This document shows positions 1 through 25,863 of a stretch of DNA of 64,000 nt, piece after piece. The translations under genes were made by a program, and so were the position numbers. Numbering within the stretch: the stretch's first letter is position 1; the number at the start of each line of letters is the position of its first letter. The stretch comes from Schmidtea polychroa (taxonomy: Eukaryota), in contig CM097885.1 in NCBI GenBank assembly GCA_044892525.1, forward strand, positions 11,224,001 through 11,288,000, read 5' to 3'. The notes under the pieces are model-generated. The model saw only the letters and a list, made by a program, of their open reading frames with translations, was not told the origin of the DNA and did no database searches.

Positions 1-290
1 TTTTCATCATAATTTTGGTCATAAAGCATTTTCATCATAATTTTGGTCATAAATCATAAAGCATTTTCATCATAATTTTGGTCATAAAGCATTTTCATCA
101 TAATTCTGGTCATAAAGCATTTTCATCATAATTTTGGTCATAAATCATAATAAATCATTTTCATCATAATAATTCATTTTCATCATAAATTTTCTTCATA
201 TTTTCATCATAATCATTTTCTTCATAAATCATTTTTTCATCAATTTTTTGGCATATTTTCATCATAAAATCATTTTCTTCAACAGTTTCA
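1..290. repeat. Degenerate tandem repeat, ~28-bp unit TTTTCATCATAATTTTGGTCATAAAGCA
   Basis: About five clear units, then decay into TTTTCATCATAA-like subunits. Confidence 0.8.
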
Positions 291-421
291 TTATAATTTT
301 TATCCAAATATTTAAAAAATTTTTTATCAAAATGTTTTTTTTTTTATGAAAATATTTAAAAAGTTGTTACGAAATTTTAATAAATTTTAATATAAAAAAT
401 ATAAAAATAAATGAATCTTAC

Positions 422-1212
422 ATTTCGATTCCATATCGGAATCAGAGTCCTCCTCATTAGAAGCGATGTCATTCATTTCGTCCATATTAGAACTATTATC
501 GGAATCATCATCTTCAGCAATTTCATAATCTTCGGCATCAATGTCAACATTGAAAACATTTGAATTTGAACATTTGAAAACATTTGAAACATTTTCTAAA
601 ATGAAAAATTAATTTAATAAAGTGAAAAATAATAAAATTTACTTTTTTCTTCGAAAACCTTGTTTTGCCCAACATCCTTAACTGGGGCATCAATAAATAT
701 CAAATCCTCATCGGCATTAATTTCTTCGTCTTCGCTAATAGTAATAATACTAGGTTCTAAATGCAAAAATTAATTTAATAAAAATTAAAATTATAAATTT
801 ACCGATGATATTTTCCGTATTTAAAATCGATTCGGCATTAATTTCTTCATCGTCGTCGCTAATAGTAATAATACTAGGTTATAAATGCAAAAATTAATTT
901 AATAAAAATTAAAATTATAAATTTACCGATGATATTTTCCGTATTTAAAATCTATTCGGCATTAATTTCTTCATCGTCGTCGCTAACAGTAATAATACTA
1001 GGTTCTAAATGCAAAAATTAATTTAATAAAAATTAAAATTATAAATTTACCAAAGATATTTTCTACATTTAAAAGCGAATCGTTTTCGGTAACCTCATAC
1101 CAGTCGAATGGTTCTAAATAAAATAGAATAAAATATAATAAAATAGAAAAAAAAAATTACCATTCGTCAAAAGACTTCTCAAAACGCGATCGTTATTATT
1201 GTTATTTTGCAT
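422..1212 (-). pseudogene. Multi-exon acidic protein gene (probable Polinton accessory gene) with tandemly duplicated exon-intron units; disrupted
   Basis: ATG at 1212 (MQNNNNNDRVLRSLLTN-EPFDWYEV...). Introns at 1114-1160, 1005-1050, 881-926 (acceptor mutated), 757-802 and 596-642, all 46-47 nt. In-frame TAG in one duplicated exon. D/E-rich product. Confidence 0.7.
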
Positions 1213-1544
1213 TTTAGCTAAACAGATTTTTGAAAAATTTAGAAAAATTGTGACAAATTTTAGATTTGTCGATGTTTATAAAGAGAATGAATATTTTCCT
1301 GTCCCAGCCAATGAGAATATAGACACACACACATATACACAGAATATTTTACTCTCTCAACCAATCACACACATGCATGTATGTAATGTAAATCAGTCAG
1401 AATTACATGTGACTGCCTTTGTTAGTCATGCCTTTGTTAACTTGCACTGTGCATGCCTCAGGCAAATGCAGTCTTTATGTTACAAATAATAATATTTATT
1501 AGAATAATAATAAAATTAATTAAAAATAATAATATTTTTCACAA

Positions 1545-1572
1545 TAATAATAATATTAATAATATTAATAAT

Positions 1573-1630
<58 letters not shown>

Positions 1631-1662
1631 TTAATAATAATAATAATAATATTAATAATAAC
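1545..1662. repeat. (AAT)n microsatellite
   Basis: Directly visible. Confidence 0.95.
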
Positions 1663-1720
1663 ACAACAACAAAGGAAAGGATACATTTATTAAACATCAA
1701 ATTTATTAAACATTTTTTCT

Positions 1721-2108
1721 TTAAACATCAAATTTTTTGTACAATAACCAAGCTAAACAATGTTGACCGCATGTTTGGGTCAAAGGATTTTGAAACATAG
1801 TTTTATTATACACAATAGGTTTTCCCATTGTTTGTAGTTTTGATATCAACAAAGCCGGGTAATAGAAACCCATAGGATCGAACACGAATATATTACCAGG
1901 TTTCACATATATAGCTATCCAATGTTCTCCACCAAGATGAGACGATTGAGTATTGACGATTATTGCTTGATTATTGCTCAAATATGGAATTTTATCAAGA
2001 GGAAAAACTCCAACAAATTCATTTCCCAATATCTGTTTTCCGATTTTATTGACCTGAACAGAACTATTTAAATAAATCCAGAGTATAAAAAAAAACAACT
2101 TACTCCAT
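1721..2108 (-). CDS. Adenain-like (C5) cysteine maturation protease; exons 2104-2108 and 1721-2063
   Basis: Catalytic His/Asp/Cys motifs GEHW, FDPMG and Q...TCGQHC. ATG GA|GTAAGT...TAG|T TCT (40-nt intron 2064-2103) gives MDSVQVNK. Confidence 0.88.
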
Positions 2109-2135
2109 GATAACTTTTTATGTTTCAATATACAT

Positions 2136-3356
2136 TTATACCAACACAGTTCTATTTGCAGTAATTTGAACTTCATTTTCAAATACTCCATATATTATAA
2201 CATGTACTGGTTCAGTAACAGCTTTTGCAAACTTTATATCCAGTCGTAAATTTCCATTTTGAGGTAATTGACTTTGATTTAAATCAAAATCAGGGGCTAA
2301 AACAAATGTAAAAAATGGGTATTTGCTTTTAAAATCTTCTAGAGTTATTCCGCAATTCAAATTTTTATCTAAATAACCCAGATTTCTAACAATACTCTGC
2401 ATATATGTCGCGCAGTAATTGTCATTCTCGAAATCTTGAATATATGTTTCTCTATAATCAGTATTTTTCGACAAAGTCAATGATGTAACACCAAAGTTTT
2501 TGAAAATTGAGCTGGACGCAGTATATGATCCATTATATTGTGCTTCACTTTGAAATGTTATCAGAATAAAATTAGGCATTCTTCTGTCACCAAATATTTG
2601 TTCTTTATAGAAAAATGAAGCACCTTTAGCAATAGCAAATTGTACAATTTCCTTTGTTTTTAAGGGATAAACTGCATGTTTTGAATTAAGACCCAATTGA
2701 TGACTAGCTAATACAGAGGGGTCTACTCGAACTCTTCTCACCAATAATTTTGCATCAACTAATTGACATATTGGTGCAGTAGTTGCACTAGTAAGAGATA
2801 ATGCAGAATCAGACCTTTTCAATCTAATATGTACATTAACTCCCGGTAGTAAATATTTCGGTTGATCCATAAAATCAAGTTGTAATGATGAGCACATGGT
2901 GAAAACCTTTGAGCCTTTTACCCACTTTTTTCTTTCATCATCACTGCCATAACCCATAGGAGTAAGACATGTATTTTTAGTATCGGAATTGTAATTTAAA
3001 ATAGTTTCTATTAATGCCTTGTGAATGAATGTATTATTTCCGCCCTCAATCTTGATATTATTAAATCCCAACACTGCATCTTTAAAAAGAGTATGAAACA
3101 GGAAATTGTTCGGTATTACATCTGCATTGGCATCCAAAACTTTTCTATCTTTATCTACAACCTTAATCTGAACAGTCAATAAAGTATCGTTCAAATCTAA
3201 ATATTCGGTTTGTGAACCATTAATATAAAACTCGATATCATTTCTACTATCTGTAATTGAATTCATAGGAAAAACTTCCTCAAATGCCCCAAATTCTATT
3301 ACAGCCTGGGGCGACGGTCTATCAAATATACATAATTCAGATTTACCACAAATCAT
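2136..3356 (-). CDS. Polinton major capsid protein (double jelly-roll, hexon-like), intact ORF
   Basis: 406 aa with KSELCIF, YLDLNDTLL, QPKYLLPGVNVHIRLKR and GNLRLDIKF motifs typical of Polinton MCP; adjacent to the protease. Confidence 0.9.
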   Translation of the reverse strand: MICGKSELCIFDRPSPQAVIEFGAFEEVFPMNSITDSRNDIEFYINGSQTEYLDLNDTLLTVQIKVVDKDRKVLDANADVIPNNFLFHTLFKDAVLGFNNIKIEGGNNTFIHKALIETILNYNSDTKNTCLTPMGYGSDDERKKWVKGSKVFTMCSSLQLDFMDQPKYLLPGVNVHIRLKRSDSALSLTSATTAPICQLVDAKLLVRRVRVDPSVLASHQLGLNSKHAVYPLKTKEIVQFAIAKGASFFYKEQIFGDRRMPNFILITFQSEAQYNGSYTASSSIFKNFGVTSLTLSKNTDYRETYIQDFENDNYCATYMQSIVRNLGYLDKNLNCGITLEDFKSKYPFFTFVLAPDFDLNQSQLPQNGNLRLDIKFAKAVTEPVHVIIYGVFENEVQITANRTVLV

Positions 3357-3724
3357 TTTGCAAATATAGTTCCATGTCCTTTCATTCGTTTGTTTATACG
3401 TGATATTCCATGTCTTTTACGTTTTGGAGCATGAGCTGGAGCTGGAGCTGGAGCTGGTTTTTGAAACATACCTGCAACCCCGGGTAAAACTTTCCCTAAT
3501 TCTGCTAAAGCTTTTGTTTTTAGAAATGGTAATATTTTCTGTTCATTCATAATAACATCTTTTGCAGTTTTCATACCAAAACTACCGATACGTTTAAGAA
3601 TAGGCAATGCAAATCTACCTATTGTTCTCAACCATCCTGATCCGTACTGTTTACCAATAAAATATGGTAAATCACCACCAGATTGGCTACCACTATACAT
3701 ACTAATAATATCAGAATTAGCCAT
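3353..3724 (-). CDS. Basic virion core or membrane-active precursor protein
   Basis: 123 aa with QSGG, QYGSG and MKGHG glycine motifs, an amphipathic helix WLRTIGRFALPILKRIG and a basic tail. Lies between mCP and MCP with start/stop overlaps; conserved in copy 2. Confidence 0.7.
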   Translation of the reverse strand: MANSDIISMYSGSQSGGDLPYFIGKQYGSGWLRTIGRFALPILKRIGSFGMKTAKDVIMNEQKILPFLKTKALAELGKVLPGVAGMFQKPAPAPAPAHAPKRKRHGISRINKRMKGHGTIFAK

Positions 3725-4750
3725 TTATTTTACGAAAATGTAATGTCAAATGAGTTTTTGAACCTTTTGGAAATTCGATTAATTGACCAGAATCATCTCT
3801 TATATTTATTTCTATATTGTTTATACAAGATGTTGAAACAGGTAAATACATGGGATTTTCTACATTGATTTGTACAACTTCATCTTGATCATGTTTTTCA
3901 ATCCATATAGATTTCATTAAAGGAACACTAGAATCACCAACAATAACTGGTTCCACGATATTACTGTAAATGAACATTTGCTGATGATTTTCGGTTTGTT
4001 TGTTCCTTCACAAATTTGTTCATTTTGTGTACATACTGGTTTAGTCAATCCTAATGTTTTTGTCAAATTTGAGTCAAATTTAACTTGACTAAGATTAGAA
4101 TTTATACTAAATCTAAATACTTTATCTTTTTGAAGCTCAAAAACTGTTAAAATCTCGCTACAATTGTCACCTAAATAAGTTTGTAATTGTTCGAGGTCTG
4201 TAATATATAAATTATCTTTAAAAGTATATGCATGCTCTGTTATTTCAAAGTATGATAGCTTAAATTTGAATTCAACTAAATTATTAGTTTTCGGAAGTGT
4301 AGAGAGATTTATTTTGACTGTATCATTAAATACATTACGTAAATCGGTAAATCCAAGACGTTTAGCATCAGCCACTGTAGAAAATATAATTTCGAATGGC
4401 TTATTCAAGCAATTCATGTATAAATATTGACCATCATCATAAATTATAGGTTTCCTTGATTTCGATGAACTCGTCAAGTTATAATTATCTTTATCAATAA
4501 GAACACTAATATATTCCGTTACTGCTACTTTCTTATTATATTCAAAAACAGACTTGCTATAGATTGGGAATAAATTGTATACAAATGTAAAATCCAACAG
4601 AGCAACTTCCCAGTCATTATCCAAATAGATAGGGTTTTGGAGTTCGATGATGAATTTGCTTGCTTGATTTTCTGGATGAATTAATGGACAACTATTGCTC
4701 GGCAAAATAGTATAAAAATTCACTTTACTATGTCTTTTGCTGATATCCAT
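3717..4750 (-). pseudogene. Minor capsid protein (penton-like), frameshifted near 3988
   Basis: N-terminal FYTILPSNS...WEVAL and C-terminal IVGDSSVPL...NIEINIRDDSG...LTLHFRK motifs are split over two ORFs. Small deletion relative to the intact copy 2 gene. Confidence 0.85.
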
Positions 4751-5352
4751 GACGGGTTTTGATAACCATGCCATTTGACATAGTATTGTTTATCCTTACC
4801 GACCTTTTTAGTTTTCAATATTTTTTGAATTCTAAATACTTTTGGATGTGGAATGACTTGTAATTCCTGCTCATAAAATTTCCCCTGTACAATATTATTA
4901 TCATTGTCTTTGATGACATACATTACAGGATTCTGTTTAGTATTTATTTTTGAAATTACAAAGACTTCATCACTCCAATTTGTATCAAAATTTTTAATAA
5001 ATGGTGATGCACTAATTTTACTAATTCTAACATGATCACCGACTTTATATTTAGGTTTTGTAATTTTTACAGATTTCTTAGAAGTCAATGATGTTTTTGA
5101 TGTAATATCAACCGGTCTCAATCCATTCAGTCCTCGATGTGATGAATGATTATAACTTGTTATTATTTTCGGTAAAGCATTTACCCATTTTTTATTACCT
5201 TGATGCACGAACAATTTCTTTAATCGATCTCTCAATGTTCGATTAAATCTTTCAACATGGGCAGCTTTGTATTGAGAATGTACCGAGTAGTGATTTATTT
5301 TCAGTTTATCGAGGATTTGCTTAACTTTGCTATTGTAGAATTCTTTACCTAA

Positions 5353-5434
<82 letters not shown>

Positions 5435-5850
5435 TTAATAATAATAATAATAATAATAATACCTAAATCTGTTTGCAAGTTATTAGGATGTCCATCTTTA
5501 AATAAAATATTAATTGCCTTGGACATTTCTTCTGCAGATTTTGCCTTGACCGGTATTGCTCGTGCAAACCTGCTGTATACATTAATACATGTTAAAATAT
5601 ATTTATTCCCATTGTTAATTTTCGAATATGGTATCATCTCCATCAAATCCATTTGCCATAAATCGTCAATACCAAATGTTTTATACGCTCTTGTTGGAAA
5701 TCTTTTCCGCATTGGTTTGTTCAAACTGTACGCAAGCTGATCTGATAACCACTTCTGGGTTTCTTTTTTCGAATTCGGAACTCTTTTGTTTAATTTTGCC
5801 ACTCCACCGAAACCGGCTTCGTCTTCTGGGTTCGTCCAAATCTTCTCCAT
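4720..5850 (-). CDS. Polinton retroviral-like DDE integrase with C-terminal chromodomain; intron 5349-5462
   Basis: WQMDL (D), QTDLG|KEFYN (D, restored by splicing), VERFNRTL (E), and chromodomain FRIQKIL...YYVKWHGY...SWI. Confidence 0.92.
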
Positions 5851-5908
5851 TACAACAAGAAGATTTAAAATTAAATTTAATGTCGGGCAATGAAGGAATA
5901 GCACCCAT
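5681..5908 (-). CDS. Small predicted N-myristoylated protein overlapping the integrase 5' end in another frame
   Basis: MGAIPS fits MGxxxS, followed by SSCC and RRRSR. ATG lies 3 nt after the upstream stop. Open at the same length in copy 2. Confidence 0.5.
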   Translation of the reverse strand: MGAIPSLPDIKFNFKSSCCNGEDLDEPRRRSRFRWSGKIKQKSSEFEKRNPEVVIRSACVQFEQTNAEKISNKSV

Positions 5909-5911
5909 TGT

Positions 5912-6445
5912 TTATGATTGATTTCCTACAACTCCACCTAATATTGATAATGCCAGAGGTATCAGGGCACCAATAAATCCACCTTGTTGTTTATATATAA
6001 TTTTCCTCATTTGCTTACGATTTTTATTATTTACTAAAGATAATAAAGGTTTCCTATGTTTGCTCAATAAATGCTTTTTTGATTTACTGATTTTAATTTT
6101 GCCTTTGACTACTTTAAGTATAATATTGAGTAAATCATCGACAACAAAATTTGGGAATGATTGCAATATATTCATTCTTTTCATACTCGGAGCCTTTAAC
6201 AATGCATTAAAAAATGGAAAACTGCGATGATTTTTAACTACTTTTTTACCGGTTTTACAGGTTTTACGGGTTTTACGTTTAGGTTTAGGATTTTTCGAAA
6301 TAAGATTCATTGCAGAGAAATTTTCAGTTACAAGTTTTTTAGATGGTGTATAACTAGTTGTTGGTGGAACTTTTGGAACTTTAATAGTCTTTCTAATACC
6401 TTTTCTTAATTTCCTAATATGTTTCACCCTTGCTTTTAGAAACAT
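5912..6445 (-). CDS. Lys/Arg-rich core protein precursor with adenovirus pX-like hydrophobic C-terminus
   Basis: Highly basic 177 aa ending QQGGFIGALIPLALSILGGVVG, resembling the GG-cleaved hydrophobic tail of adenoviral pX. Conserved in copy 2. Confidence 0.7.
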   Translation of the reverse strand: MFLKARVKHIRKLRKGIRKTIKVPKVPPTTSYTPSKKLVTENFSAMNLISKNPKPKRKTRKTCKTGKKVVKNHRSFPFFNALLKAPSMKRMNILQSFPNFVVDDLLNIILKVVKGKIKISKSKKHLLSKHRKPLLSLVNNKNRKQMRKIIYKQQGGFIGALIPLALSILGGVVGNQS

Positions 6446-6463
6446 TATTATTCATAGAGGTTT

Positions 6464-7090
6464 TCAACTTTGTTTATAAACCATGGCACCTTTTGGGTTG
6501 AAAATATCTGTTTTTACACGTAAATCATCTGGACATTGTTTTGTGAAATCAAGAAATATATATCCATGAGGTATTTTTGTAGCATCTTGAAATGCACTGA
6601 TAAGAAAATTACGATTGTTAGGGTATGCTTGACGTGCAAGAAAATCAATCACTGTTGCATCTCTAGGATTCTTGAAAATAACTAAATACTGTACATTTAA
6701 ATTACGTGTTCGATGTGCCCCACCTTGATGAAATAGATTTTGTGTTATGAAAATAACTGTTACACCGACATGTCTGCTGATCTTTGTAAATAAATTATTA
6801 AAATCTTTTTCTTTATTAGCTTCTTGATACAAATCATCGATAATAATGACATCACCCTTCTTTAATCGGCTGGACCAGTTTTTATCAAATCCCTTTACTA
6901 TTTTCATGTTTTTTAATTTACAGAAACTTGATTGAGTTAATCCATGTTCTTCATCAGCACCCCTATGCCAATAAATCCTGTTGAATTTTGATTTGAATAA
7001 ATTTGATTTTAGTAATTTACAAACAAATAATGTTTTTCCACTACCACTCGGACCAACGATTTGGTATACTGCATCATTTCTTAATTCCAT
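6464..7090 (-). CDS. A32/FtsK-HerA family genome packaging ATPase
   Basis: Walker A GPSGSGKT, Walker B IIIDD, plus SRH and ITQN motifs. Confidence 0.92.
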   Translation of the reverse strand: MELRNDAVYQIVGPSGSGKTLFVCKLLKSNLFKSKFNRIYWHRGADEEHGLTQSSFCKLKNMKIVKGFDKNWSSRLKKGDVIIIDDLYQEANKEKDFNNLFTKISRHVGVTVIFITQNLFHQGGAHRTRNLNVQYLVIFKNPRDATVIDFLARQAYPNNRNFLISAFQDATKIPHGYIFLDFTKQCPDDLRVKTDIFNPKGAMVYKQS

Positions 7091-7189
7091 TTCAAAAATT
7101 TTATATATGTATATTTGTTTATATTCGATGATTTAATGAACTCGTGCTCAATTTGTATATAAAGACTAATTTTCATAAATGATTTAATA
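7091..7189. promoter_or_regulatory. Divergent promoter between the ATPase (virion gene block) and the TBP-like gene
   Basis: ~100-bp head-to-head spacer with TATATAAA at 7156-7163 (+) and TATAAA near 7118-7123 (-). Conserved in copy 2. Confidence 0.55.
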
Positions 7190-7627
7190 ATGTTAGCAAA
7201 TATAAATTATCGAGGAAATTTTGATGTATCGAATATGAGGTTCCCACCAGGGAAACCCCAGCAAATTATCGATAGAAGCGGGAAATATCCGATAATATTT
7301 TTCAAGACTGGTAAATGCAGAATCATGGGATGTAAGAAACCTTTGGATATTAATAAATTACAATATCGAATAAATAATATTAAAATCCAATCAATTACCG
7401 TTACTATGGATATGGGACATAGTATCAATCTTTATAACATGTCGAAAAAATGTGATTGTATGTTTGAACCGGAATTGTTTCCGGCACTAAGACTATTAAA
7501 ATATAACCCTATATGTGTCAACGTGTTTGCTAGTGGAAAGGTTGTCATGCTGGGGTTGAGAAATTTGGACTATAGAGAATTTGTTGACAATGTTCGAAAT
7601 GAGATAATTTCATTGGTCGATTTCTAA
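7190..7627 (+). CDS. Virus-encoded minimal TATA-box-binding protein (TBP)-like protein
   Basis: Two TBP repeats: LANIN...IIFFKTGKCRIMG and KIQSITVTMD...FEPELFPAL...VNVFASGKVVMLG (compare TBP YEPELFPGL...LIFVSGKVVLTG). Confidence 0.85.
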   Translation: MLANINYRGNFDVSNMRFPPGKPQQIIDRSGKYPIIFFKTGKCRIMGCKKPLDINKLQYRINNIKIQSITVTMDMGHSINLYNMSKKCDCMFEPELFPALRLLKYNPICVNVFASGKVVMLGLRNLDYREFVDNVRNEIISLVDF

Positions 7628-7701
7628 TTGGTAAATTTCTAATTGGTTATTGATTGATTTAAACAAACGGTTTTTTGTTTAGAATTCATTTTTTCAACAC
7701 C

Positions 7702-7825
7702 ATGTACAAATTACCAAGCTCTGCAACTCTCATGAAAGATATCGACGATTCCGGTAAATTTAAAATTTTTATTTTCACATTATTTACTATTTATTATTTT
7801 AGAAAAATATTTAGAAGTTATGATA
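7702..7825 (+). pseudogene. 5' remnant of the intron-containing accessory gene that is intact at 27649-28065
   Basis: MYKLPSSATLMKDIDD, then a GTAAAT...TTTAG intron; truncated by a ~2-kb deletion relative to copy 2. Confidence 0.7.
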
Positions 7826-7958
7826 AATTGAGGACGTCCTCATAATCAATGTGATTACCTTCTATAATCTTTTCGGTCCGATCGACCAGGAAAATTAGGC
7901 TTTCCATAATATTCTTGTTGATGAGTTCTCTTAACATATTTTCCATTAAATTAGACAT
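7826..7958 (-). pseudogene. 5' remnant of Bcl-2-like gene
   Basis: MSNLMENMLRELINKNIMESLIFLVDRTEKIIEGNHIDYEDVLN, homologous to 29770-29903. Confidence 0.75.
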
Positions 7959-8063
7959 TTTTACAATATTTTAAAATATGATGTTTTATTTATACCAATA
8001 CTGTATGATTTTGATTGGTTGATAGACTATAAATGTAAAAGAAAGGTTTTGATTTGATACACC
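7959..8063. promoter_or_regulatory. Bidirectional CCAAT/TATA promoter shared by the Bcl-2-like and glycoprotein genes
   Basis: TATAAATAAA on the minus strand, central GATTGG (CCAAT) and TATAAAT on the plus strand. Same layout at 29904-30007. Confidence 0.55.
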
Positions 8064-8564
8064 ATGAAAACTCTATTCATATTGCTAATTATTATAACGA
8101 GTGTGTGCTCACACAATACAACAATAACAGTGGAGTCTTTTAATAAATCAATATGTGTTTGTCCGAATACAGCCAAGTTGATGGATATTTTATATATTCT
8201 CGATAAACCAAAATGGTCAAAGCATCCAGGAAAAAGAATATCTCAAAGATTGGAGAATTTAGAAAACAGTTATGAACTAACATTTGAATATATACAAAAT
8301 ATAAAAATTAAATTGATTGATCATATTGAGGTTTTCAATAACTCTATTACTGAAAATAAAAAGAATATGAAGATTATTGATAAGAAGCATGATTATTTGT
8401 TAAAAAAGATTGAATTATTATTAAGAGAAATTCAAACAATCAAAGGATCAATAGAATATCTGAAAATCAATTCAACGTTACCAATTTCTAACAATATTGC
8501 TGCGAATAGTAGTACATCAATATTTAGTTTACCTTTGTTAATTTTACATTATTTTATTGTTTAA
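8064..8564 (+). CDS. Secreted or GPI-anchored coiled-coil glycoprotein (viral accessory)
   Basis: Signal peptide MKTLFILLIIITSVCS, several N-x-S/T sequons, heptad-like middle, and small residues (ANSSTS) before a terminal hydrophobic tail. AATAAA follows the stop. Confidence 0.7.
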   Translation: MKTLFILLIIITSVCSHNTTITVESFNKSICVCPNTAKLMDILYILDKPKWSKHPGKRISQRLENLENSYELTFEYIQNIKIKLIDHIEVFNNSITENKKNMKIIDKKHDYLLKKIELLLREIQTIKGSIEYLKINSTLPISNNIAANSSTSIFSLPLLILHYFIV

Positions 8565-8589
8565 ATAAATGTATGTTTTGTTGATTTCT

Positions 8590-9094
8590 TGAGCGTGACC
8601 AGTACCCTTGTGAGGACCTTGATGAGTCATATGCCCTTGAAAATGACCTTGATGAGTCACACTATGAGTCATGGTCTTTGTTTCAATGGCCTTGATGAGT
8701 CATAGTATGAGTCATATGACCCTGAAAAAAAATTTCAAGGTCATATGAGTCATACTATGAGTCATATGACATTGAAAATGACCTTGATGAGTCATGGACT
8801 TTGTTTAAGTGACCTTGAGAAATTTTTCGACCTTGATGAGTCATAGTATGAGTCATATGACCTTGAAAATGACCTTGATGAGTCATATGATGAGTCATGG
8901 TCTTTGTTTAAATGACCTTGAAAAATTTGATGAGTCATAATATGAGTCATAGTCTTTGTTTCAATGACCTTGATGAGTCATATGTCTTTGTTTAAATTTG
9001 ACCTTGAAAAAAAAATGTACTTTTAGACTTAGAATATTTTTGAAAATCTTACCGACGGGGGGGTACTGTGCTAGCGGTGCCCAATCTATCTACT
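8590..9094. repeat. Right terminal inverted repeat of Polinton copy 1, an array of TGAGTCA and TGACCTTG motifs
   Basis: About 15 TGAGTCA and about 9 TGACCTTG/CAAGGTCA motifs. Inverted homologue at 60988-61220. Confidence 0.85.
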
Positions 9095-11644
9095 AATAAT
9101 AAATATTGATTTATAGTATAAAAAGAAAATCAGATAAATGAAATTTATTTTAAAATCACTAAAAATATAAATTATATGGAAAATTAAATTATCTAGAACC
9201 GGGACTCGAATTGCTTTACTATATATAAAACAAAAATTTGTTTTGCAAAAAAAACATGACAACAATAACCCATACATTTTAATATTTAATATATCAACAA
9301 CCGAGTTAAAACAAGACAAGCTGTGATACAGGCGAGTCAACGATGGTGTATAAAATAATCAAATATGAATGTCATCTAACCAAGTTAAAAACATTAAAGT
9401 TCAGAACAATTCGAGGTAAACAGTTCACGGATGTAGAACTTTTGGATAGTTTAATTATTCAACTAATTAATTTAATTTGTTTTTACACTTAAACTGTTTA
9501 AATTGTTTGTTTGTAAAATTGTTAAATTTGAACTTCTACATTTTTGGTAAATTTTTTTAAAGGAAACAAGTTTTATTTTAATTTAATATATATTATACGT
9601 GTTGATATTTTTAAGGCATGGCGAATAATACAAATGTAAATGATAAGAATAAAGATTCACTGTGGAATTACTTTAACCGCACTAAAGATGGAAATGCAGG
9701 TATATGCACAATTCAAGGTTGCTCGTAAACCATAAAATCTTCAGGCGAAACGACTACTGGTTTACGTAGCTATCTTAGAACACAGCATAACATAAATTTA
9801 TTAAAAAGAGATCTAAATGGTGGAACCTCGAGCTCAAGCGAAATTAAAAATATCAACCGAAGTGAATTTTTCTTGTAAAATTACAAACTTTTTCACCAAA
9901 ACCATTGATGAATCTCTAACTGCAATAATATCTCGGATGACAAGCAAAGATGGCCTGATATTTAAAACATTTTGTACGTCATATAATTTGAGAGAGCTAT
10001 TAAAAAGTAAAGGTCATCAACAAATTCCTAAATCGTCCAATACAATTAGGAATATAGTTTTATCGTATTCCCAAAAAATACGTGATGAAATGATGAGTTA
10101 TCTTCATGAACTGTTCGCGCGAAAGATTTAGTTTGACGTTTGACGAGTGGACATTGGTTAAAAATCGCCGATATAAGTGTATTAATATTCACGCGAATAA
10201 CATATTTTGAAACCTTGGCTTAACACGAGTGAATATTATCAATGCCAGCAGAAAAGTACATAGAAATACTTGGAGAGAAATTGCGTGAATTTAATTTTTT
10301 AATTTATAATATTATTTCAATAACAACGGACGGTGCTTCCGTGATGACAAAAGTGGGAAAATTAGTAAATGTTGATCATCAGCTTTGCCTAGCACATGGC
10401 ATACACTTAGCTGTGGTAAAAGTCATTTATAAAAAACACCGTAAATGAAGAATTAAATAATTATGAGAATCCAGATAATGATGAAGATGATGAAAGTGAA
10501 GAAAATGACGGTTTTAATGTTATTAATGGTACGCTCATAGAAGTTTCAAATATAAAGTTGAACTCAAAAATATATTCGCTAGTTGAATAAATACGAAAGG
10601 TCGTAAAAATTTTTCGCAGATCACATACAAAAATTGATAGTGTTCTTCAAAAATATGTAAAGGCAGAATTTGGAAAAGTAATGGAATTGAAATTGGATTC
10701 GAAAACACGATGGAATAGTTTACTTGATATGCTCGAACGATTTCAGAAATTAAAAATAAGGTAAGAAAAAGTCTAATTGACCTTAACATAGATATTAGCT
10801 TCTCAGATGAACAATTTCACTTATTATCTAATATAATGTCAGTGCTGCTTCCTATTAAAGTCGCGGTGGTAACACTTTGTTGTCGAGACACAAATCTATT
10901 TAGTGCTGACATCACTTTAAAATTTATGCTGGATGGATTATTTCAACAAAACAGCTGTTTAAGTAATCAATTTAAATCAGAATTGATTTTACGTATCAAG
11001 GAACGCCCAACAACTTTTGCAGATGTTTTTCAATATTTAAATAATTCGCAAGGTTACTTTACATCAAACGAAAAAGATTACGATATATTCTATTAAACAA
11101 GTAAAAGTTCAATAACTAAAGCTATTGTAAAATTGGTGATGAGTCATTGTGACAAAAATGATGAAAACGTTGTTGAAAACACGGATGATATTATAGAAGA
11201 AGTTTTAGAGGCGTCACACACTCCTGTTCATGATGTTATATTATCAGTGAAAGAAAAACTTCACCGAACAATACAAGAAAAATCCAATTTAAATCTCGAA
11301 GGTCCACAAGGATCACAGTAAATAACGTTAGGAGATATAAATAAAATTATCAAAAGAGAAATGAAAATATGAAAGTTCGTGGTAAATACTTAGAATTGGC
11401 CTATAACTACCTTAGATCCGTGCAACCAATAAGTGTTAATTCAGAAAGGACGTTTTCGGTTGCAGGGATTTTCTGCACAAAAATACGATCACGATTATAT
11501 GATGAAGGCCTAAATGCGTTATGTTTTTAAGAGCGTTTTTTAATAAGTTAAATTAAATAAATAAAACTTTAATAAAAATTTGTATTGTTTGATTTTTATC
11601 GATATTTATCGATAATTACATTGTAGGATATTTTGCAATCACTA
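9095..11644 (+). mobile_element. Decayed hAT DNA transposon (transposase pseudogene ~9618-11550)
   Basis: BED finger (LWNYF...C...C...H), LTFDEWT, ITTDGASVM, CLAHGIHLAV, TRWNSLLDMLERF and SVNSERTFSVAG motifs with many stops and frameshifts. Candidate right end ...TTGCAATCACTA at 11644. Confidence 0.88.
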
Positions 11645-14577: not shown

Positions 14578-16569
14578 ATGCTGCTACCAAGCAATCATCA
14601 TTTTATACTATTATTATTATTATTATTATTATTTCGATCAACTTATGTTGATTGTTTTAATTTAAAAAAAAAGATATTTACTTTTGCACTAAGTGCATTC
14701 AATTAAAAATTTTATTTATTTAGTATTTTTGCACTAAGTGCATGATATTTATATTCAAATCAAAAAATGTTTATTCTGTGCAATAAGTGCATTATAGAAA
14801 AATTTAATTTGAAAAAATAAATGCAAAAAAAATAATAATTAAATGATTCCATAGACTTAGATTAATATTGAATATATTGAAAAAAATCCTTCAATTAAAT
14901 AACCTGTGCAATTTTCTACTGAGAGTGATGCAGAACATGTCACATATATAAAAAGTCAGAATTATTAATTAAAAAGAAAAAGAATTAAATAAATAATAGA
15001 CAAGCATATTAACAACATATTAATAATCCTCCACCTTTTTTTATTTGTGTCTTTTGAACTGTTTTCACATGTAATCTTACAGTTATCGATTAATGTTTGA
15101 ATTGAATATGTTTTGGAATTTATCAATTACTAATTGAATTATTAGGAATACTTATTGAAAAACACTTCTACGGATTAACTGTTTTAGATCAATAACAAAC
15201 AAAAATACATTAAAGATGCTGGATAACGGGATAATTCCAAAAATAGTAACAATTAAAATCTGCACTTTCAAAAACAGACATTCTATTGACAGAACAGAGT
15301 GTATTGACATTCGAAATAGAGTGTCAACAGGGATTGTTAATTTTATATTATATAATTTGTAATTGTGATAATCAAATATATTTTATTGAACCAGTGTTTG
15401 TGTTCTTATTTATATAGGAACCATCAAGTTGAGATTTGAGAACCTCAACATAAGATTTTCAGCTATAACGATATAGCTAATAATTATGAAGGTAATAAAC
15501 TAAAACCTGAGTACAGAAGTTGAGTGATAATATTTATTTTACACAAAGATTTGCATCTAGAGGCATGTATATTAGCTTTTTCTAAAACTGATTTCATAAG
15601 TATTTTTGTCAATTATTACTTTTCCGATAAATATCTGACTATAGATTAAAACTTTGTTGAATTGATGAAAGATTAAGATATTGTACCTTTGAATGCCTTG
15701 ACTAAGTTTCCATATCTCCATCAAGTTATTACAACCGTTGGAGACTTAATAAAAGCCTTTTAGTGCATAATTTCGTTCTCTTGGAAGCATTTGATTATGT
15801 CATATTGATCAATTCATTTTTTTAATATTTTTTATTAAAAATATTTATTTTATTTTTATTTTTTTACTATATTTTTTTAATTATTTATAATATATTTTTA
15901 TTGTTTATAAATATTTTAATTATTATTTATACAATTATTCTAATTTTTATATTTTATTTGCTGAAACGGCCACCAGATTAAATTACGCTAAATATCTGGC
16001 TTGCGATCAAATGCGTGTTGCTTTGATGGATGATAAAGTTATTGAACCTAGAAGATTTAATAAAAGCATTCCAGTTTAATTTTTTCGTTCCCTTGACACC
16101 ATTTAACCATCTGGCTCTGCTAACCTTTTCCCATTATCATGTGGCGATTATGAGAAGCAGTTATCATACATCCAACTGTTTTATACATCGACCTTATTGC
16201 ACCTAGAAAGGTCATTTGAACAGTAAATCCATTTAAATATTTTGAATTAATTCTCTAGCATCCGGTTTTATAAGGCAATAAATTGCACGAATCATAAATT
16301 TATTATTTCTTTTGTTTATTATTCAGATATTTTCAAAAAATAACTTTTTTCAAAATGCCTTATTTAAAATTGGCAACAATAAAATTATTCAAAACAAAAA
16401 TATTTAAAATCTCTCGACATTTATAAAAATTTTGACAATTAAATTAAACTATTTCACGCTTTGGCATTTTTATCCCTAATTAATTAATTTTATAATAAAT
16501 CAAATTTATTATTTCAATGATACAATAAATATATTATTCTAATTGGCAATTTTAGATAGAGAAATGTAA

Positions 16570-16619
<50 letters not shown>

Positions 16620-17234
16620 TCTTTATTACCTTTTGTATTAATTGTCATCAGCATTTTTATAATTTTATATTTATTGTTTTTCAATTTATTATCATTCCGA
16701 GTTTTTATTAATTTATTATTTTTATTGTGATGTTTTTGTAATTATTATTTTTAGTTTCAATTATATTTTGTGGCTTGCCTACCAGCGAAAAAGAATAGAA
16801 ATGGCTCACAAATCCTTACAAAGCAAGCAAATTTCTCAATAATTCCAACTAACATGAAATGCATGCTTCTAATTAATAAAAATCAAATATAAATGAAAAA
16901 ATGATTAATTTAGCAACTGAAAATCATTGGAATATAGCACACTGATAGAGCTACCAATTTGTCCAATGAAATTAAATGGCCTTGAAAACAACTAATGAAA
17001 AACGAGTTCGCTTTATTGACAGGCGAATTAGCGTTTAGATTGACCACCAATCTTGCTGTGGTCTTGTGGAACTGATTAAACATTCATGTCGAATATAAAT
17101 GCAAATGAATATTAACTATTAAGAATTCAGATAATAATTTATAACATGTATATTTAATAAATATAATTAATTCACAAACTAAGCTTATCTCGAATTTAAA
17201 CAAATTAATATTAGTTTTTAAATTTAAATAATTA

Positions 17235-17739
17235 AAAAGAACTCACTAATTGAATGGCTAACATCAATACTGTTTTTAACGAGATTTGCCTATAACAATG
17301 AATAAACAAATCTTCCAAAGACGGACCCAGTAATTCTAAAACTAACGCATTGTATCGATCGCATTGTCCAAAGTAAAAATCTTCTGGAAAGCCTGTTATC
17401 GGATTACCTAAACTGTTAAAAATATTAATCACAACCATAATATAATAAATGAAATAGTTGAGCATTCTATAAAATCTGTATTCTAAATGTAATTAGGGTG
17501 CTCTGGTTTTCATGAATTCTGACTTTAGAGCAACATGTTCGTTTGTATATCAATTCCTCCCGGAAACATTATGAAAATAAAAAACATTTGTAATTGATAA
17601 TATTACCTAATCGAAGTTCATCAAAATTTCCACAAAACTATCAAAAAATTCGAATCTCCACCGCTCAGAACATTAGAAGATTTCGAATAACGATTTTAAT
17701 CTGCTAAGCACTATATTTGAATATTTTATTAAAACTAAC
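17235..17739 (-). pseudogene. CSNK1G: Casein kinase I gamma (gilgamesh-like) 5' pseudogene fragment with introns
   Basis: [22 protein letters not shown] and [17 protein letters not shown]...[11 protein letters not shown] motifs. In-frame stop and deletions; no downstream exons seen. Confidence 0.85.
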
Positions 17740-18039
17740 CTGAAAAAATAGTGAATTTAAACAAACAGCTTAATAAAAAATGCTGACTTATAATAATTAA
17801 AAATTTATTAAAATTGTTTATATCCCATGAAAATTTTAATATATGTTCAAAGTTTTGAAATTTAATTCGTATTTTTTATTGGACAATAAAAGTAGTTTAA
17901 TTTATATTTAATTTTTGTGTATGTAAAATTGGTTTTCAACTATTTAAAGATAAAAGATTTAAAAACACTTAGTGTTTGGTAAAAACTGTAGAAATTAAAA
18001 TATTTTTGAATACGATAGTAATGCATTTTCAGAAACCAG

Positions 18040-18989
18040 CATGACAATCACATTGATAAATTAAATAAATACAAAACCCATTGGCAGTAAACGGGAAACG
18101 TTGACATATTTTTCATTAAGATTTTTAAGCTGTTGAAACTATTCGAAAACAGACTGGTGAGCGTTGGAATTTATGCACGCAACCCTGCTGTAAAGGCATA
18201 TGTTTCTGATAAGAATTGTCGGGAAATAATTGCCTTTGCCTAAAAGCACATTGGCTGGACTACACAGCAATGGTCTGATGAACCAAAGTTCAACCTTTTT
18301 GTTTCCGATGGTCGATGTAAAGTTTGGCGCCCCAAACGAGAAAAGGACAATCCTCTATATTCCAGGGTAAGAATACCTCATTGATGGAGATTTTAACAGG
18401 ACAACGATCCGAAGCATTCCTCAAAGTCCTACAAGAGTGGTTCGTGAAGAAAAGGTCAATGTTCTGAAATGGCTGTCACAATCTTTGGACCTTAATCCAA
18501 TTCGAACATCTTTGGGATGAGATTGGATGAGACGCCTTGAAGGTCAACATTTCTCGAACTCGAATCAGTTGTATGAGAAACTTTAGGAAATTTGGTCTGA
18601 GATTCTTGTTAGCATATGTGAGCGCCTTGTGAACTCGAACCCACGCTGTTGTCAGGCAGTCTTGGATGCTGGTGGATACCCTACAAAATATTAATCATTA
18701 TCTATGTGTAAACTCTTTCACTCAGTATTTATTCTGTATTTATTCAGTACAAAAGAAAATAAAAAAGTGTTTCCATATTGATTTGATTCAAAATTGAGAA
18801 TTTTTTTCAAACAAATTACGATAAGAGTGTTAAAATTCCCTCTCATTGTTTCACTGATTGTACCTTCAGAAAGCCCACCTAAATTTTACCAAGAAGCACT
18901 AACGGGAAAATTCATGGCATTTACAGAATAAAATGATGAAAGATGAAACAAATTTCTATCTCATATTTCTATACTTTTTCTGCTCACTG
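18040..18989 (+). mobile_element. Tc1/mariner (Tc1-like DDE) remnant
   Basis: WSDEPKFNLFVSDGR, QDNDPKH, SQSLDLNPI..HLW and GGYPTKY* fragments. Right TIR ...CTGCTCACTG followed by TA. Confidence 0.88.
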
Positions 18990-19229
18990 TATATATGATA
19001 AATATAGAAATTATGAAGGTAATAAAGAAAAAGCTTAATGCGGAAGTTGAAGGATAATATTTATTTTACACAAAGATCTGCATATAGTGACATGTAGCTA
19101 TCTTATTAATTCATCTCAATCAACTACGAAAAACGCTTGTGATCATAGTAATAATGATCGAAGTAGAGTTATGTTGCTAGATAGTGATATAAGTATTGTT
19201 AGTCAACCTCCTTTTACGATTGTTAGCTT

Positions 19230-19472
19230 GAACGACATAACTCTTGTCCAACCAACTCATTTGCAAACTAACCTCAAAGAAACTATTGATTCTTAGTGAA
19301 GAAAGAATTAAGCAATTGGATATTAAAATCAGAGTTCACAGTGGTGGAAAGAACTCACAAATTTATGCAATCAGTCAAGCATTGGTAAAATCTGTTGTTG
19401 CATCCTAGCAAAAATTTGTTGATGAACAATCTAAAAGAGAGTTGAAAGAAAGCTTCATTCGATATGATGGAA
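19230..19472 (+). pseudogene. RPS16: 40S ribosomal protein S16 (uS9) pseudogene fragment
   Basis: LDIKIRVHSGGKNSQIYAISQALVKSVVAS*QKFVDEQSKRELK...YD matches RPS16; contains a stop and a frameshift. Confidence 0.88.
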
Positions 19473-20448
19473 GTGAAATTCCTTGGATATCTAATTATGA
19501 TAACAGCGGTATTTTTGATCAAAGTTTTGGCAGTTGAGATGGCCGTGAAGTCAAAACACACCCATAGCTCTATTTGGATCATCGCAGGTGAAGTGACACG
19601 ATTAGGGTGAGATATCGTCGCGAGATTAATGGAACTTTATCTATCGCAAGAAAATGAGTGCGAAAATTCCGGATAGTGTCGATTTATTGTCCACAATATA
19701 GATAATTGAATGGATAGAATGACTTACACCTAAATCCGAATTATAAAAGTCTCTACACCAAACACCACTGAGATTCATTCTCTATAGTGGTGGTTGGCGT
19801 GTAGAGCAATTGCTCACTCACCAATTTAATGAATTTCCTATCATATTTTGGAAATTTATTTTTGCCATTTTACAAATGGTTTTCAGGTAAGATGTTAAAT
19901 TTTAAGACTTGAATTTTGATCCATATAGATATGAGAGTTCTTAAATACTACTTTTAATCAACAGTATAAGTATAAAATATTTTTAATTAATTTTCAAGGT
20001 TTTTTAGGAATTTTATGATATTTATCTTTAAGTATTTTAGAATTATTTCGAAAAAATGTGAGTGAGATATATTTTTAATTATAATTAAATAAATCAATCA
20101 CCAAAAATATGTATTTTTCTAAATAATTTTTGTTTTTTTTCTGAGCTCAATATGAGATGCTTCTTTCAGGAAACCATCTGGATTGAAAAGACATTGAACC
20201 AGATTCATCTGCTCTTGATAATTTGATTAAAAATATATTTTTAAAAAGTTTCAGCGATCTTTTTTCTTTCTAAAAATTGTCAAAAATCAAGTTATAATAG
20301 AAACTTATCTCAGCGGTGCATTTCTACGAATCAAATGTTTATGTGTTTTTAGTGTGTGTTACGCTTGTGTGTAGTTTTTAATTTTTCTTCCAGTTTTCAG
20401 ATTTCTATAGTATAAAATGTATCTTACTGCACTATAAATGAGAACATC

Positions 20449-22302
20449 AGTAGGTAGTTAGTAAAATTGTTGCAACTTTTGATTACGCAATTGTTGCAAC
20501 TCAAATTTTTTGCGTTCAGGGATTTTTAGTCCAAAATTTTTTTTATCACACTATAGTGAGGGGGTCTCGATTGATCCTGAGATTTTCAATACAAAAAAAT
20601 TTTTTCAATAGAAATTTGAATTATCATTAAAAAGCCAAGGATTTTTCGAATTAAATTAAGGTGGGTCTCCTTGGTCATGAGAATTTCAATAGAAAAAGGT
20701 GGTCTACAATAAAAAAGCCAAGGATTATTCAGACTGTAGTGAGAGGGTCTCCATGGTCCTAGAATTTACAATCGAAAAAGACGGTCTTCAATAAAAAAGC
20801 ATGGTAATTTAAGGTCTCAGGATATTTTCAATACAAAAAGGTGGTCTACACTAAAAAACAGTGGTAATTTAAGGTCTCAGGATATTTTCAATACAAAAAT
20901 CCGATTATCACTAAAATAGCATGGATTTTTCTAGGTCAATTCAGGTGGGTCTTCTTGGTCCTGAGAATTTCAATAGAAAAAGGTGGTCTACACTATAAAA
21001 CTTGGTAAATTTTTTAAAATAAAGCAAATTATGGGTCTAAAAAATTGATTTACAGTAAATTATGGTCCAAATTTTTAAATTAAAGTAAATAATAGGTCTA
21101 ATAATTGAATTAAAGCAAACAATAGGCTGAAATAAGTAAATTAAGGTCCAAATTTTTGAATTACATTAAATAATAGGTCTAATAATTGAATTAAAGTAAA
21201 TAATGGTTCAAAATTTAAAATTAAAGTTAATTAAGGGTTCAACTAAGTAAATTAAGGTTCAAATTTTAAATTAAAGTAAATCAAGGTCCAAATTTTTAGA
21301 ATTAAAGTAATCAATGGGTTCAAATTTTTATATTAAAGTAAATAATGGTTCAAAATTTAAAATTAAAGTTAATTAAGGGTTCAACTAAGTAAATTAAAGT
21401 CCAAATTTTTAAATTAAAGTAAATAATGGTTCAAATTTTTAATTAAAGTAAATCAAGGTCCAAAATTTTAAATTAAAGTAATGAATTGGCTCAAATAACT
21501 AAATTAAGGTTCTAAAAAATTAAATTAAAGTTAATTAAGGTCCAAATTTTAAAATTAAGTAATCAATGGTAAAAAAATTTTAAATTAAAGTTAAATAAGT
21601 AAATTAAAGTAATAATTTTTAAATAAGTAAATTAAAGTTATGTAATAAGTAAATTAAAGTAATATTTTTAAATTTATTAACAAAAAGTTGAAATAATAGA
21701 AGATGTTTGAGAATTGAAATTTTTTAATGAAAATTTTTTATGAATAATTTTTTAAGTTAATTTTTAATGGAAATTTTTATGAAATATTTTTTAATGATAA
21801 TTTTAGATGGAAATTTTTATGAAATATTTTTCAAAGACAAATTTTAATAATAATTCAACAACAAACCAACAACTTAGTACCAACAACCAGTAACTTACGA
21901 ACATGTATTAACAACCACATACCTACAACTAGTTACTAACAATCAGTTACCTGATACCAAGTACTAACAACCAACTAGCTACCACCTACCAAGTACATAC
22001 AACCAACAACAACCAAGTACTAAGCATTATTAACTAACTACTAAGTACTTACAACCAAAAACAACCAGCTTACAACTAGCTACCACCTACCAAGTACTCA
22101 CAACCATTAACTTACGAACATGTATTAACAACCAAATACCTACAACTAGTTACTAACAACCAGTTACCTGATACCAAGTACCAACAACCACCTACCAAGT
22201 ACTAACAACCAAAAACAACCAGGTACTAAGCATTATCGACCAACTAAATACTAAGTACTAACAACCAAAAACAAGAAAAAACTAGGTACCAGATACCAAC
22301 TA
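20449..22302 (+). repeat. Left arm: AGTAG terminus, then ~60-bp GGTCT repeat, AAATTAAAGT-type repeat and CAACCAAGTACTAA-type repeat blocks
   Basis: Three distinct tandem-repeat blocks, truncated at 22302 where they join the protease intron. Confidence 0.8.
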
Positions 22303-22347
22303 AAAAACAACTTACTCCATGACAACTTTTTGTGTTTCTGTATACAT

Positions 22348-23563
22348 TTATACCAACACTGTTCTATTTGCAGTAATTTGAACTTCATTTTCAAATACTC
22401 CGTATATTATAACATGTACTGGTTCAGTAATAACTTTTGCAAACTTTATATCCAGTCGTAAATTTCCATTTTGAGGTAATTGACTTTGATTTAAATCAAA
22501 ATCAGGGGCTAAAACAAATGTAAAAAATGGGTATTTGCTTTTAAAATCTTCTAGAGTTATTCCGCAATTCAAAATTTTATCTAAATAACCCAGATTTCTA
22601 ACAATACTCTGCATATATGTCGCACAGTAATTGTCATTCTCGAAATCTTGAATATATGTTTCTCTATAATCAGTATTTTTCGACAAAGTCAATGATGTAA
22701 CACCAAAGTTTTTGAAAATTGAGCTGGACGCAGTATATGATCCATTATATTGTGCTTCACTTTGAAATGTTATCAGAATAAAATTAGGCATTCTTCTGTC
22801 ACCAAATATTTGTTCTTTATAGAATGATGAAGCACCTTTAGCAATAGCAAATTGTACAATTTCCTTTGTTTTTAATGGATAAATTGCATGTTTTGAATTA
22901 AGACCCAATTGATGACCTGCTAATACTGAGGGGTCTAGTCGTACTCTTCTCACCAATAATTTTGCATCAACTAATTGACATATTGGTGTAGTAGTTCCAC
23001 TAGTAAGAGATAATGCAGAATCAGACCTTTTCAGTCTAATATGTACATTAACTCCCGGTAGTAAATATTTCGGTTGATCCATAAAATCGAGTTGTAATGA
23101 TGAGCACATGGTGAAAACCTTTGAGCCTTTTACCCACTTTTTTCTTTCATCATCACTACCATAACCCATAGGTGTAAGACATGTATTTTTAGTATCAGAA
23201 TTGTAATTTAAAATAGTTTCTATTAATGCCTTGTGAATGAATGTATTATTTCCGCCGTCAATCTTGATATTATTAAATCCCAACACTGCATCTTTAAAAA
23301 GAGTATGAAACAGGAAATTGTTCGGTATTACATCTGCATTGGCATCCAAAACTTTTCTATCTTTATCTACAACCTTAATCTGAACAGTCAATAAAGTATC
23401 GTTCAAATCTAAATATTTGCGAACCATTAATATAAAACTCGATATCATTTCTACTATCGGTAATTGAATTCATAGGAAAAACTTCCTCAAATGCCCCAAA
23501 TTTTATTACAGCCTAGGGCGACGGTCTATCAAATATACATAATTCAGATTTACCACAAATTAT
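22348..23563 (-). pseudogene. Major capsid protein, copy 2 (start codon lost, frameshift near 23418)
   Basis: Highly similar to 2136-3356. ATG changed to ATA and a 5-nt deletion upstream of YLDLND. Confidence 0.88.
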
Positions 23564-23928
23564 TTTGCAAATATAGTTCCATGTCCTTTCATTCGTTTGT
23601 TTATACGTGATATTCCATGTCTTTTACGTTTTGGAGCTGGAGCTGGAGCTGGAGATTTTTCTTTTTGAAACATACCTGCAACCCCGGGTAAAACTTTCCC
23701 TAATTCAGCTAAAGCATTTGTTTTTAGAGATGGTAATATTTTCTGTTCATTCATAATAACGTCTTTTGCAGTTTTCATACCAAAACTACCAATACGTTTA
23801 AGAATAGGCAATGCAAATCTACCAATTGTTCTCAACCATCCCGATCCGTACTGTTTACCAATAAAATATGGTAATTCACCGCCAGATTGGCTACCACTAT
23901 ACATACTAATAATATCAGAATTAGCCAT
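23560..23928 (-). CDS. Basic core or membrane-active precursor protein, copy 2
   Basis: Near-identical to 3353-3724. Confidence 0.7.
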   Translation of the reverse strand: MANSDIISMYSGSQSGGELPYFIGKQYGSGWLRTIGRFALPILKRIGSFGMKTAKDVIMNEQKILPSLKTNALAELGKVLPGVAGMFQKEKSPAPAPAPKRKRHGISRINKRMKGHGTIFAK

Positions 23929-25802: not shown

Positions 25803-25860
25803 TACAACAAGAAGATTTAAAATTAAATTTAATGTCGGGCAATGAAGGATTAGCACCCAT
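25633..25860 (-). CDS. Small predicted N-myristoylated overlapping ORF, copy 2
   Basis: MGANPS...SSCC...RRR, same length as in copy 1. Confidence 0.5.
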   Translation of the reverse strand: MGANPSLPDIKFNFKSSCCNGEDLDEPRRRCRFRWSGKIKEKSSEFEKRNPEVVIRSACVQFEQTNAEKISNKSV

Positions 25861-25863
25861 TGT

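Follow-up and report, generated by a model that had tools for sequence, protein, structure and literature searches.

Conserved GT-AG segments as probable spliceosomal introns in core genes of a planarian Polinton/Maverick element

We analysed 64,000 nt of the Schmidtea polychroa genome (assembly GCA_044892525.1, contig CM097885.1, forward-strand positions 11,224,001 to 11,288,000; this stretch is referred to as the window and its numbering is used throughout). The window contains three copies of one Polinton/Maverick element, which were compared with related copies across the AT-rich, 781 Mb genome. Short GT-AG segments interrupt the protease, the integrase, the polymerase and three accessory genes of this element, and it is very probable that the host spliceosome removes them as ordinary constitutive introns. 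They show the traits of U2-type introns: GT..AG ends, a conserved position and phase, and free length. Among the core genes they are confined to the enzymes of replication, integration and maturation; the capsid, ATPase and TBP-like genes are single open reading frames (ORFs). The GT-AG introns listed in an earlier, sequence-only reading of the window were all recovered at their places, except that the acceptor of the segment at 881-926 is not canonical in copy 1.

The protease of copy 1 is encoded on the minus strand and begins with an exon of 5 nt (2104-2108), the start codon and two bases. This is followed by a 40-nt phase-2 intron with GT..AG ends and a GTAAGT donor (2064-2103) and by exon 2 (1721-2063), which matches the adenovirus-type protease family Peptidase_C5 above the cut-off (E 4.8e-6). 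The counterpart intron in copy 3 (63150-63186, minus strand) measures 37 nt and is also GT..AG. Using the 39 closest other copies and the window, the segment is bounded by GT..AG in 41 of 42 anchor matches, the single miss being the truncated copy 2. It is 37, 38, 39 or 40 nt long in 7, 13, 3 and 18 cases, respectively (36-41 nt across copies overall), which covers all three frames. Exon 2 is an uninterrupted frame of 113 aa in 37 of 39 copies, and it has no Met ahead of its conserved His-Trp motif. Since the segment changes frame between copies while its flank remains intact, it is noncoding. An upstream in-frame start within the end of the capsid gene, as in database entry P0121, was also considered and was rejected, as the frame shifts between copies. 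As a separate observation, three loci of one family (L285, L286 and L289) carry a second ATG-NN-GTAAG unit 17 nt upstream of the protease start.

The comparison with related Polintons that the sequence-only reading had called for gives the protease intron considerable depth. All 32 further matches have the intron at the same site and phase with differing bodies, and site and phase are common to five families of the genome (exon-2 identity 63-70% for two of them); the pattern occurs 2,368 times genome-wide and its reversed control not once. The intron also occurs outside the genome, at a length of 37-43 nt, in 12 contigs (9 distinct) among the 17 closest from metagenomes. These contigs are 46-58% identical to the query protease and have 28-34% GC; the other five (38-42% GC) start unbroken with M-D/L-x. 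Of the more distant contigs with an aligned 5' end, 38 of 46 show an unbroken in-frame ATG (M-N/D-x) and eight are ambiguous. Present in five families and in metagenome contigs and absent from distant relatives, the protease intron is therefore, on this comparison, an old gain in one clade. It would have entered after base 5 in the ancestor of the AT-rich clade. The proposal that introns were gained and adapted to this host thus holds only for the gain within a clade: an intron that is old and shared outside the genome is not a recent adaptation. The database homologues P0123, P0126 and P0127 start with residues that are apparently intron-derived.

The integrase intron (5349-5462, minus strand) lies between exon 1 (5463-5850) and exon 2 (4720-5348), which encodes a C-terminal chromodomain. 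It is a 114-nt phase-1 segment of the form GT-(ATT)n-TTTTAG within the Gly codon of the D-x-G-x-E-F motif, and an 8-nt direct repeat, TTTAGGTA, is found at both junctions. The protein matches rve below the cut-off (E 1.5e-5) in addition to the chromodomain, and the 120 listed homologues carry PF00665. In all 120 of these (of 896 found) D-x-G-x-E-F is unbroken, with no insertion at this place. All 55 spans, found in 64 loci, contain the insert, which measures 48-162 nt and has GT..AG ends in 54; its donor pattern occurs 2,022 times genome-wide (reversed control 0), and an empty junction in the context of the window's lineage was found 0 times genome-wide. Both exons are conserved as protein, 80 of 150 scored matches being 100% identical over 150 aa. 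The sequence-only reading, which took the segment for an intron, agrees with these ends; it had overlooked that the insert is an in-frame ATT microsatellite, whose unspliced frame is open as poly-Ile.

The integrase insert is unevenly distributed. It is missing in other families of the genome (30 of 30 loci, L231-L260), where the site reads G|GTAA, and in three metagenome contigs; the intron-free lineages are also multi-copy in the same genome. In a further lineage, 19 of 20 loci carry a plain, AT-rich intron at this very base; its length is 43 nt in 17 of them and 34 and 33 nt once each. The G|GTAAA of the integrase would be a proto-splice site that has taken an intron once or twice, and in the window's lineage the intron body is an ATT microsatellite between duplicated TTTAGGTA ends. 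Since the metagenome contigs L157 and L159 have the protease intron and lack the integrase intron, the latter is probably the younger. The duplicated AGGT-type ends fit intron gain by AGGT duplication or break repair as described in PMC3443670; here too the intron is bounded by a duplicated 8-mer containing AG|GT, whereas the filler is an ATT microsatellite. The conserved G|GT context by itself could yield part of the repeat. A (TA)n insert in L066 was examined as a second microsatellite with target duplication and rejected as plain repeat expansion.

Upstream of the polymerase, the sequence-only reading had described a set of acidic exons with five introns as a gene of its own and had overlooked a further donor at 421. 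These exons are instead most likely the six-exon 5' leader of the DNA polymerase, as suggested by junction signals kept across families. On the minus strand, the predicted first exon (1161-1212, ATG at 1212) is followed by exons 1051-1113, 927-1004, 803-880, 643-756 and 422-595. Introns 1 (1114-1160, 47 nt), 2 (1005-1050, 46 nt), 4 (757-802, 46 nt) and 5 (596-642, 47 nt) are canonical and phase 1; intron 3 (881-926) is set at 46 nt by analogy to its duplicate, its acceptor AG being missing in copy 1, where the third exon (927-1004) also holds an in-frame stop. Every junction is phase 1 and all inner exons are multiples of three. A tandem duplication of a single exon-intron unit (711-958 vs 832-1082, 94%) accounts for two of the five introns. 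The last acidic exon (422-595) ends in a phase-1 donor, and a predicted intron of 1,823 nt, of which the first 421 nt (1-421, minus strand) lie in the window, would join it to the polymerase main exon behind a pyrimidine-rich acceptor at L070:8599. The main exon has about 1,350 codons and carries an endonuclease VII/HNH-like insert; Atlas feature matches of 0.95-0.97 lead to clusters with PF03175 on 19-47% of their members, and direct PF03175 and PDB searches gave no match.

The last acidic exon ends in T before the donor at 421, and T precedes GT in all 66 donor matches. Among 61 matches to the start of the polymerase exon (some loci overlapping), 52 have an N-terminal C/H motif, six failed the motif and three lie at a locus edge; 51 of the 52 motif-bearing starts read AG|GT (47) or AG|GC (4), across 13 peptide variants. 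T followed by GT or GC across the junction therefore gives TGT or TGC, a Cys codon; in four metagenome relatives this Cys follows the start Met in an unbroken frame, as M-x(-x)-C. The polymerase would thus have acquired the acidic exons as a leader, with the joining intron placed within a conserved Cys codon. A protein search with the polymerase N-terminus found no relative among 703 candidates. That the acidic exons form a separate gene, with the polymerase beginning at a Met behind the C/H motif, is improbable. The main exon does have a Met near residue 22 that the families conserve, the last acidic exon read past its donor stops after nine further codons, and an RNA link between the acidic exons and the polymerase is absent; however, the 21 residues ahead of that Met are themselves conserved and match the unbroken N-terminus of the relatives, and different families retain both the acceptor AG|GT/GC and the donor T|GT. 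Two further observations concern this region. Candidates for short phase-1 introns about 30 codons into the polymerase are seen in two of these four metagenome relatives, L152 (~1690-1735) and L155 (~1580-1620), and are absent in the window's family. Leader and polymerase N-termini are strongly divergent between copies with a common capsid/protease module (L124-L140, L141-L150 and L261-L276), which suggests module exchange between families.

Three accessory genes contain similar introns. The intron of a gene of unassigned function (27701-27748, plus strand) is a 48-nt phase-1 GT..AG segment with counterparts of 48-52 nt in 32 spans, 31 of them GT..AG; 20 more matches to the upstream anchor have no downstream anchor. 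In a second acidic accessory gene, a 41-nt phase-1 intron (28939-28979, plus strand) follows a first exon of 16 nt, and its counterparts measure 41 or 45 nt in 30 spans. A probable Bcl-2-like gene has a 44-nt phase-0 intron (29573-29616, minus strand), with counterparts of 44 or 46 nt in 13 spans; its exon 1 matches Pfam Bcl-2 below the cut-off (E 0.013), and its exon 2 contains WIEDNGGW, which we take to be a BH2-like motif. As a size reference, an intron of host Nup205 (33337-33381, plus strand) is 45 nt long with GT..AG ends, and 9 of the 11 introns of this gene measure 40-57 nt in a rough parse made from reading frames alone. The match in intron size between element and host, which the sequence-only reading had pointed out, therefore holds. 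The intron bodies, compared within the element only, differ between genes and families, the tandem duplicate excepted.

One accessory intron has a possible spliced junction in a contig. In run X1, a single contig (depth 8.9) aligned to copy L051 skips 8477-8529 with five letters between. Its net loss is exactly the 48-nt intron (8480-8527, the counterpart of 27701-27748), and those five letters agree with the exon ends in a genomic variant that carries the intron. This is the only intron with a junction contig, in one contig of one run. A junction of the kind expected in spliced transcripts was thus seen for one accessory intron, in a run only guessed to be RNA, and not for the protease, integrase or leader, whose junctions are absent among the 15 of 30 joints and the 10 junction rows listed. 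The first contig comparison was dominated by joints of run X8, which behaves like DNA, and uncovered or unjoined parts were counted as evidence in neither direction.

The absence of those three junctions is one of several points that weigh against the splicing reading. None of the sequencing runs compared is recorded as RNA, this being only guessed; the stretch used in the comparison left out the long polymerase intron and included no host control intron. Some contigs run unspliced into introns (X3 record 17 and X2 record 9), though these may be DNA. The linkage of leader and polymerase exons was deduced from the genome and not read from RNA. Of 87 distinct integrase inserts, 84 keep an open frame (the exceptions are 80, 101 and 122 nt long), because the ATT unit has three bases. 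A splicing size limit had been considered from the rarity of short inserts (12 at ≤35 nt vs 526 at 33-63 nt) and was dropped, as control ATT tracts elsewhere in the element share the lower range (28-220, 37-240 and 66-248 nt vs 48-156 nt for the insert) and a single sub-lineage contributes most of the 42-nt peak in insert length. Two independent integrase gains were likewise dropped as an established result: the best tree of the downstream exon (46 rows, L273 dropped) splits the two intron lineages with supports of 0.98 and 0.93, but the AU test leaves one clade unrejected (p 0.137). Finally, copies were chosen by similarity to queries, certain loci overlap, and kin copies are not independent events.

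On the splicing reading, the element would be transcribed in the host nucleus and its introns inherited through DNA replication, so that an intron once gained would never be removed by reverse transcription. Gains would sit at start-proximal or proto-splice positions, and the fact that more distant relatives are intronless supports gain of the core-gene introns within a clade. If left unspliced, protease RNA would run into a stop at codon 3 and integrase RNA would place 12-60 isoleucines beside the catalytic Asp; with such RNAs null or crippled, the element would depend on splicing, as distinct from using it as a switch. The introns might also protect the element from a silencing aimed at intronless DNA, a topic of PMC8770142.

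A switch was what the sequence-only reading had proposed in suggesting that the introns gate integrase and protease expression, a suggestion that found no support, neither regulated splicing nor retention being shown. It is unlikely that host cells keep the introns of protease, integrase and polymerase unspliced in most tissues and reserve splicing for places where the element is to move. Such a gate would agree with the crippling effect of retention, with the restriction of introns to enzymes of replication, integration and maturation and not to capsid or ATPase genes, with the contigs that enter introns unspliced, and with the description of planarian Polintons in PMC8532177 as PIWI targets de-silenced in differentiation. 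Against it, any phase-2 GTAA/GTGA donor automatically produces the stop at codon 3, the splice sites are of strong consensus, the unspliced contigs may be DNA, and intron-free integrase lineages have reached many copies in the same genome as well. More far-reaching, and doubtful, is the idea that an AT-rich animal Polinton clade made host splicing an obligatory licence for its enzymes, the host switching the element by regulating the splices; its parts would be the ancient protease intron, a recurrent hot spot by the catalytic Asp of the integrase (once microsatellite-born) and a spliced leader completing the Cys motif of the polymerase.

The integrase insert alone might be an in-frame microsatellite expansion, giving a poly-Ile integrase or none, with copies moved in trans by the intron-free lineages that exist in the genome. 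The preserved frame, tract lengths resembling those of other ATT tracts and the missing integrase junction among the contig joints listed are compatible with this, but the conservation of both exons as protein, the near-constant GT and AG ends, the plain 43-nt intron at the same base in another lineage and the intact motif in every listed homologue make it distinctly unlikely. That the segments are decay, inserted into dead copies after integration, is extremely improbable. It is true that copy 1 carries other lesions (the stop in the leader and the minor-capsid gene in two frames) and that truncation affects copies 2 and 3; yet the same segments stand at about 2,000-2,400 places, and that of the protease is common to metagenome contigs at 46-58% protein identity. 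For the protease, decay is refuted by the position shared across families.

Copy 1 is a Polinton/Maverick. Its right part occupies 1-9094 of the window; the whole element is 17,050 bp long and its left end lies 7,956 nt upstream of the window start (L070:2045). It ends in AGTAGAT..ATCTACT and is flanked on either side by AATAAT, a 6-bp target-site duplication. The right terminal inverted repeat (8620-9094) is internally repetitive and 89% identical to the left one across 472 nt. Polinton terminal inverted repeats are expected to have 5'-AG...CT-3' ends, and those of copy 1 do. Its coding content comprises a polymerase, a RING protein, a protease, an integrase, an A32-type ATPase, a TBP-like protein and a capsid protein; a virion-forming Polintovirus would be recognised by particles or extrachromosomal genomes. 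Copy 2 (22302-30878) is deleted: its first bases lie inside the protease intron, and the part of the integrase that surrounds the integrase intron is missing. Copy 3 is cut off by the window end; it starts at 60988 with a terminal AGTAGAT (60988 onward; 62081-62368, minus strand) and has only the last part of the polymerase before a jump to other element genes. A 701-nt query returned 2,513 candidates, and the family has more than 2,000 copies.

The capsid, ATPase and TBP-like genes have no introns. The major capsid protein (2136-3356, minus strand) is a single ORF of 406-407 aa in 30 of 38 copies, with Atlas feature matches of 0.98, one to a cluster with the double jelly-roll family PF21738 on 30% of its members. 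The probable minor capsid gene (3720-4789, minus strand) is named by position, no database name having been found. A Polinton minor capsid protein is expected to be a single jelly roll; this one gave no match in a Pfam search, and relatives keep a counterpart at the expected place. It is split into two frames in copy 1 and is one 360-aa frame in copy 2 (23924-25003). Its central part is wholly different among copies that are otherwise 94-98% alike (3720-4789 vs 23924-25003; L051, L037 and L065), which suggests a swapped variable module. The A32-type packaging ATPase (6464-7090, minus strand) is a single ORF that matches Pox_A32 above the cut-off and has 208 aa in 27 of 29 copies. The TBP-like gene (7190-7627, plus strand; Pfam TBP, E 1.7e-15) is a single ORF of 145 aa, intact in 26 of 27 copies; it is also found in copy 2 (27137-27574, plus strand) and in the relatives L162 and L163.

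Several observations concern the surroundings. Myosin-head exons (L070:1291-2028, plus strand) stop directly left of copy 1, so that the insertion is probably within an intron of a host myosin gene. Copy 1 has a RING-finger gene within its left end (L070:3125-3664, minus strand), in place of which other copies have different cargo, and a 730-aa ORF resembling peptidase M60/enhancin (L075:5737-7929, minus strand) adjoins the degraded polymerase of a related element. To the right of copy 1 (9600-11500, plus strand) lie degraded transposase-like frames, hAT-like by eye, for which a Pfam search gave no match. A 4.1-kb stretch that includes the 3' end of Nup205 is duplicated at 99.5% (39689-43791 and 45394-49497), and a 7.6-kb stretch is duplicated at 99.7% (14739-22302 and 49500-57070); these duplications may reflect a recent event or an assembly artefact.

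The detection of Polinton core genes, and the judgement whether they are intact, rely on single ORFs, and intron-bearing lineages would be scored as broken or be given wrong N-termini. An intron kept in several families implies long nuclear, spliceosome-coupled expression, which is the mode of expression of adenoviruses. The thousands of copies, in intron-bearing and intron-free sister lineages, offer a compact system in which to test how introns are gained at proto-splice sites, and to study introns that consist of a microsatellite.

The sequence-only reading's premise that Polinton core genes are usually intronless agrees with published descriptions of Mavericks. Those of vertebrates are described with eight intronless ORFs, intact elements having no introns (PMC8097293); they share with the present element terminal inverted repeats, a 6-bp duplication, polymerase, integrase, protease, ATPase and capsid genes, but three core genes are split here. 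For nematode Mavericks, which have the core set and intron-bearing genes travelling in the element in common with ours, core genes are called intronless and introns are placed in host-derived cargo (10.1101/2022.07.12.499685), whereas here they are in core genes. Intronless core genes, a trait of these descriptions and not part of the definition, are thus not a feature of this element. Adintoviruses and pPolB2-type Polintons (PMC8502044, PMC10748475) share the endonuclease VII/HNH-like polymerase insert and the Bcl-2-like and RING accessory genes, and one figure legend in PMC8502044 includes a TBP-like gene; spliceosomal introns in element genes are not reported in the main texts. In gene content the element resembles this Beta/pPolB2 class. 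The accessible text of PMC12220804 and PMC6431247 contains nothing on spliceosomal introns in Polinton genes, a scan of a viral contig collection found no relative, and no publication describing conserved introns in the core genes of animal Polintons was found in a search to which supplements and Repbase, which may already annotate flatworm Polinton exons, did not belong. Spliceosomal introns do occur inside Maverick/Polinton-like proviruses of dinoflagellates (PMC11957031), as introners, repeated mobile sequences mostly inserted after integration; by contrast, each intron here appears to be unique within the element, fixed at a conserved site and passed down through several lineages. Ginger1 DNA transposons have 1-4 GT-AG introns at conserved sites in a DDE integrase-type gene (PMC2836005) and so offer a parallel for introns in the integrase-type gene of a DNA element, although Ginger1 is a small cut-and-paste element with neither polymerase nor virion genes. 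The present analysis adds the persistence of the protease intron in several families and in metagenome contigs, a map of the presence and absence of the integrase intron, and one junction contig.

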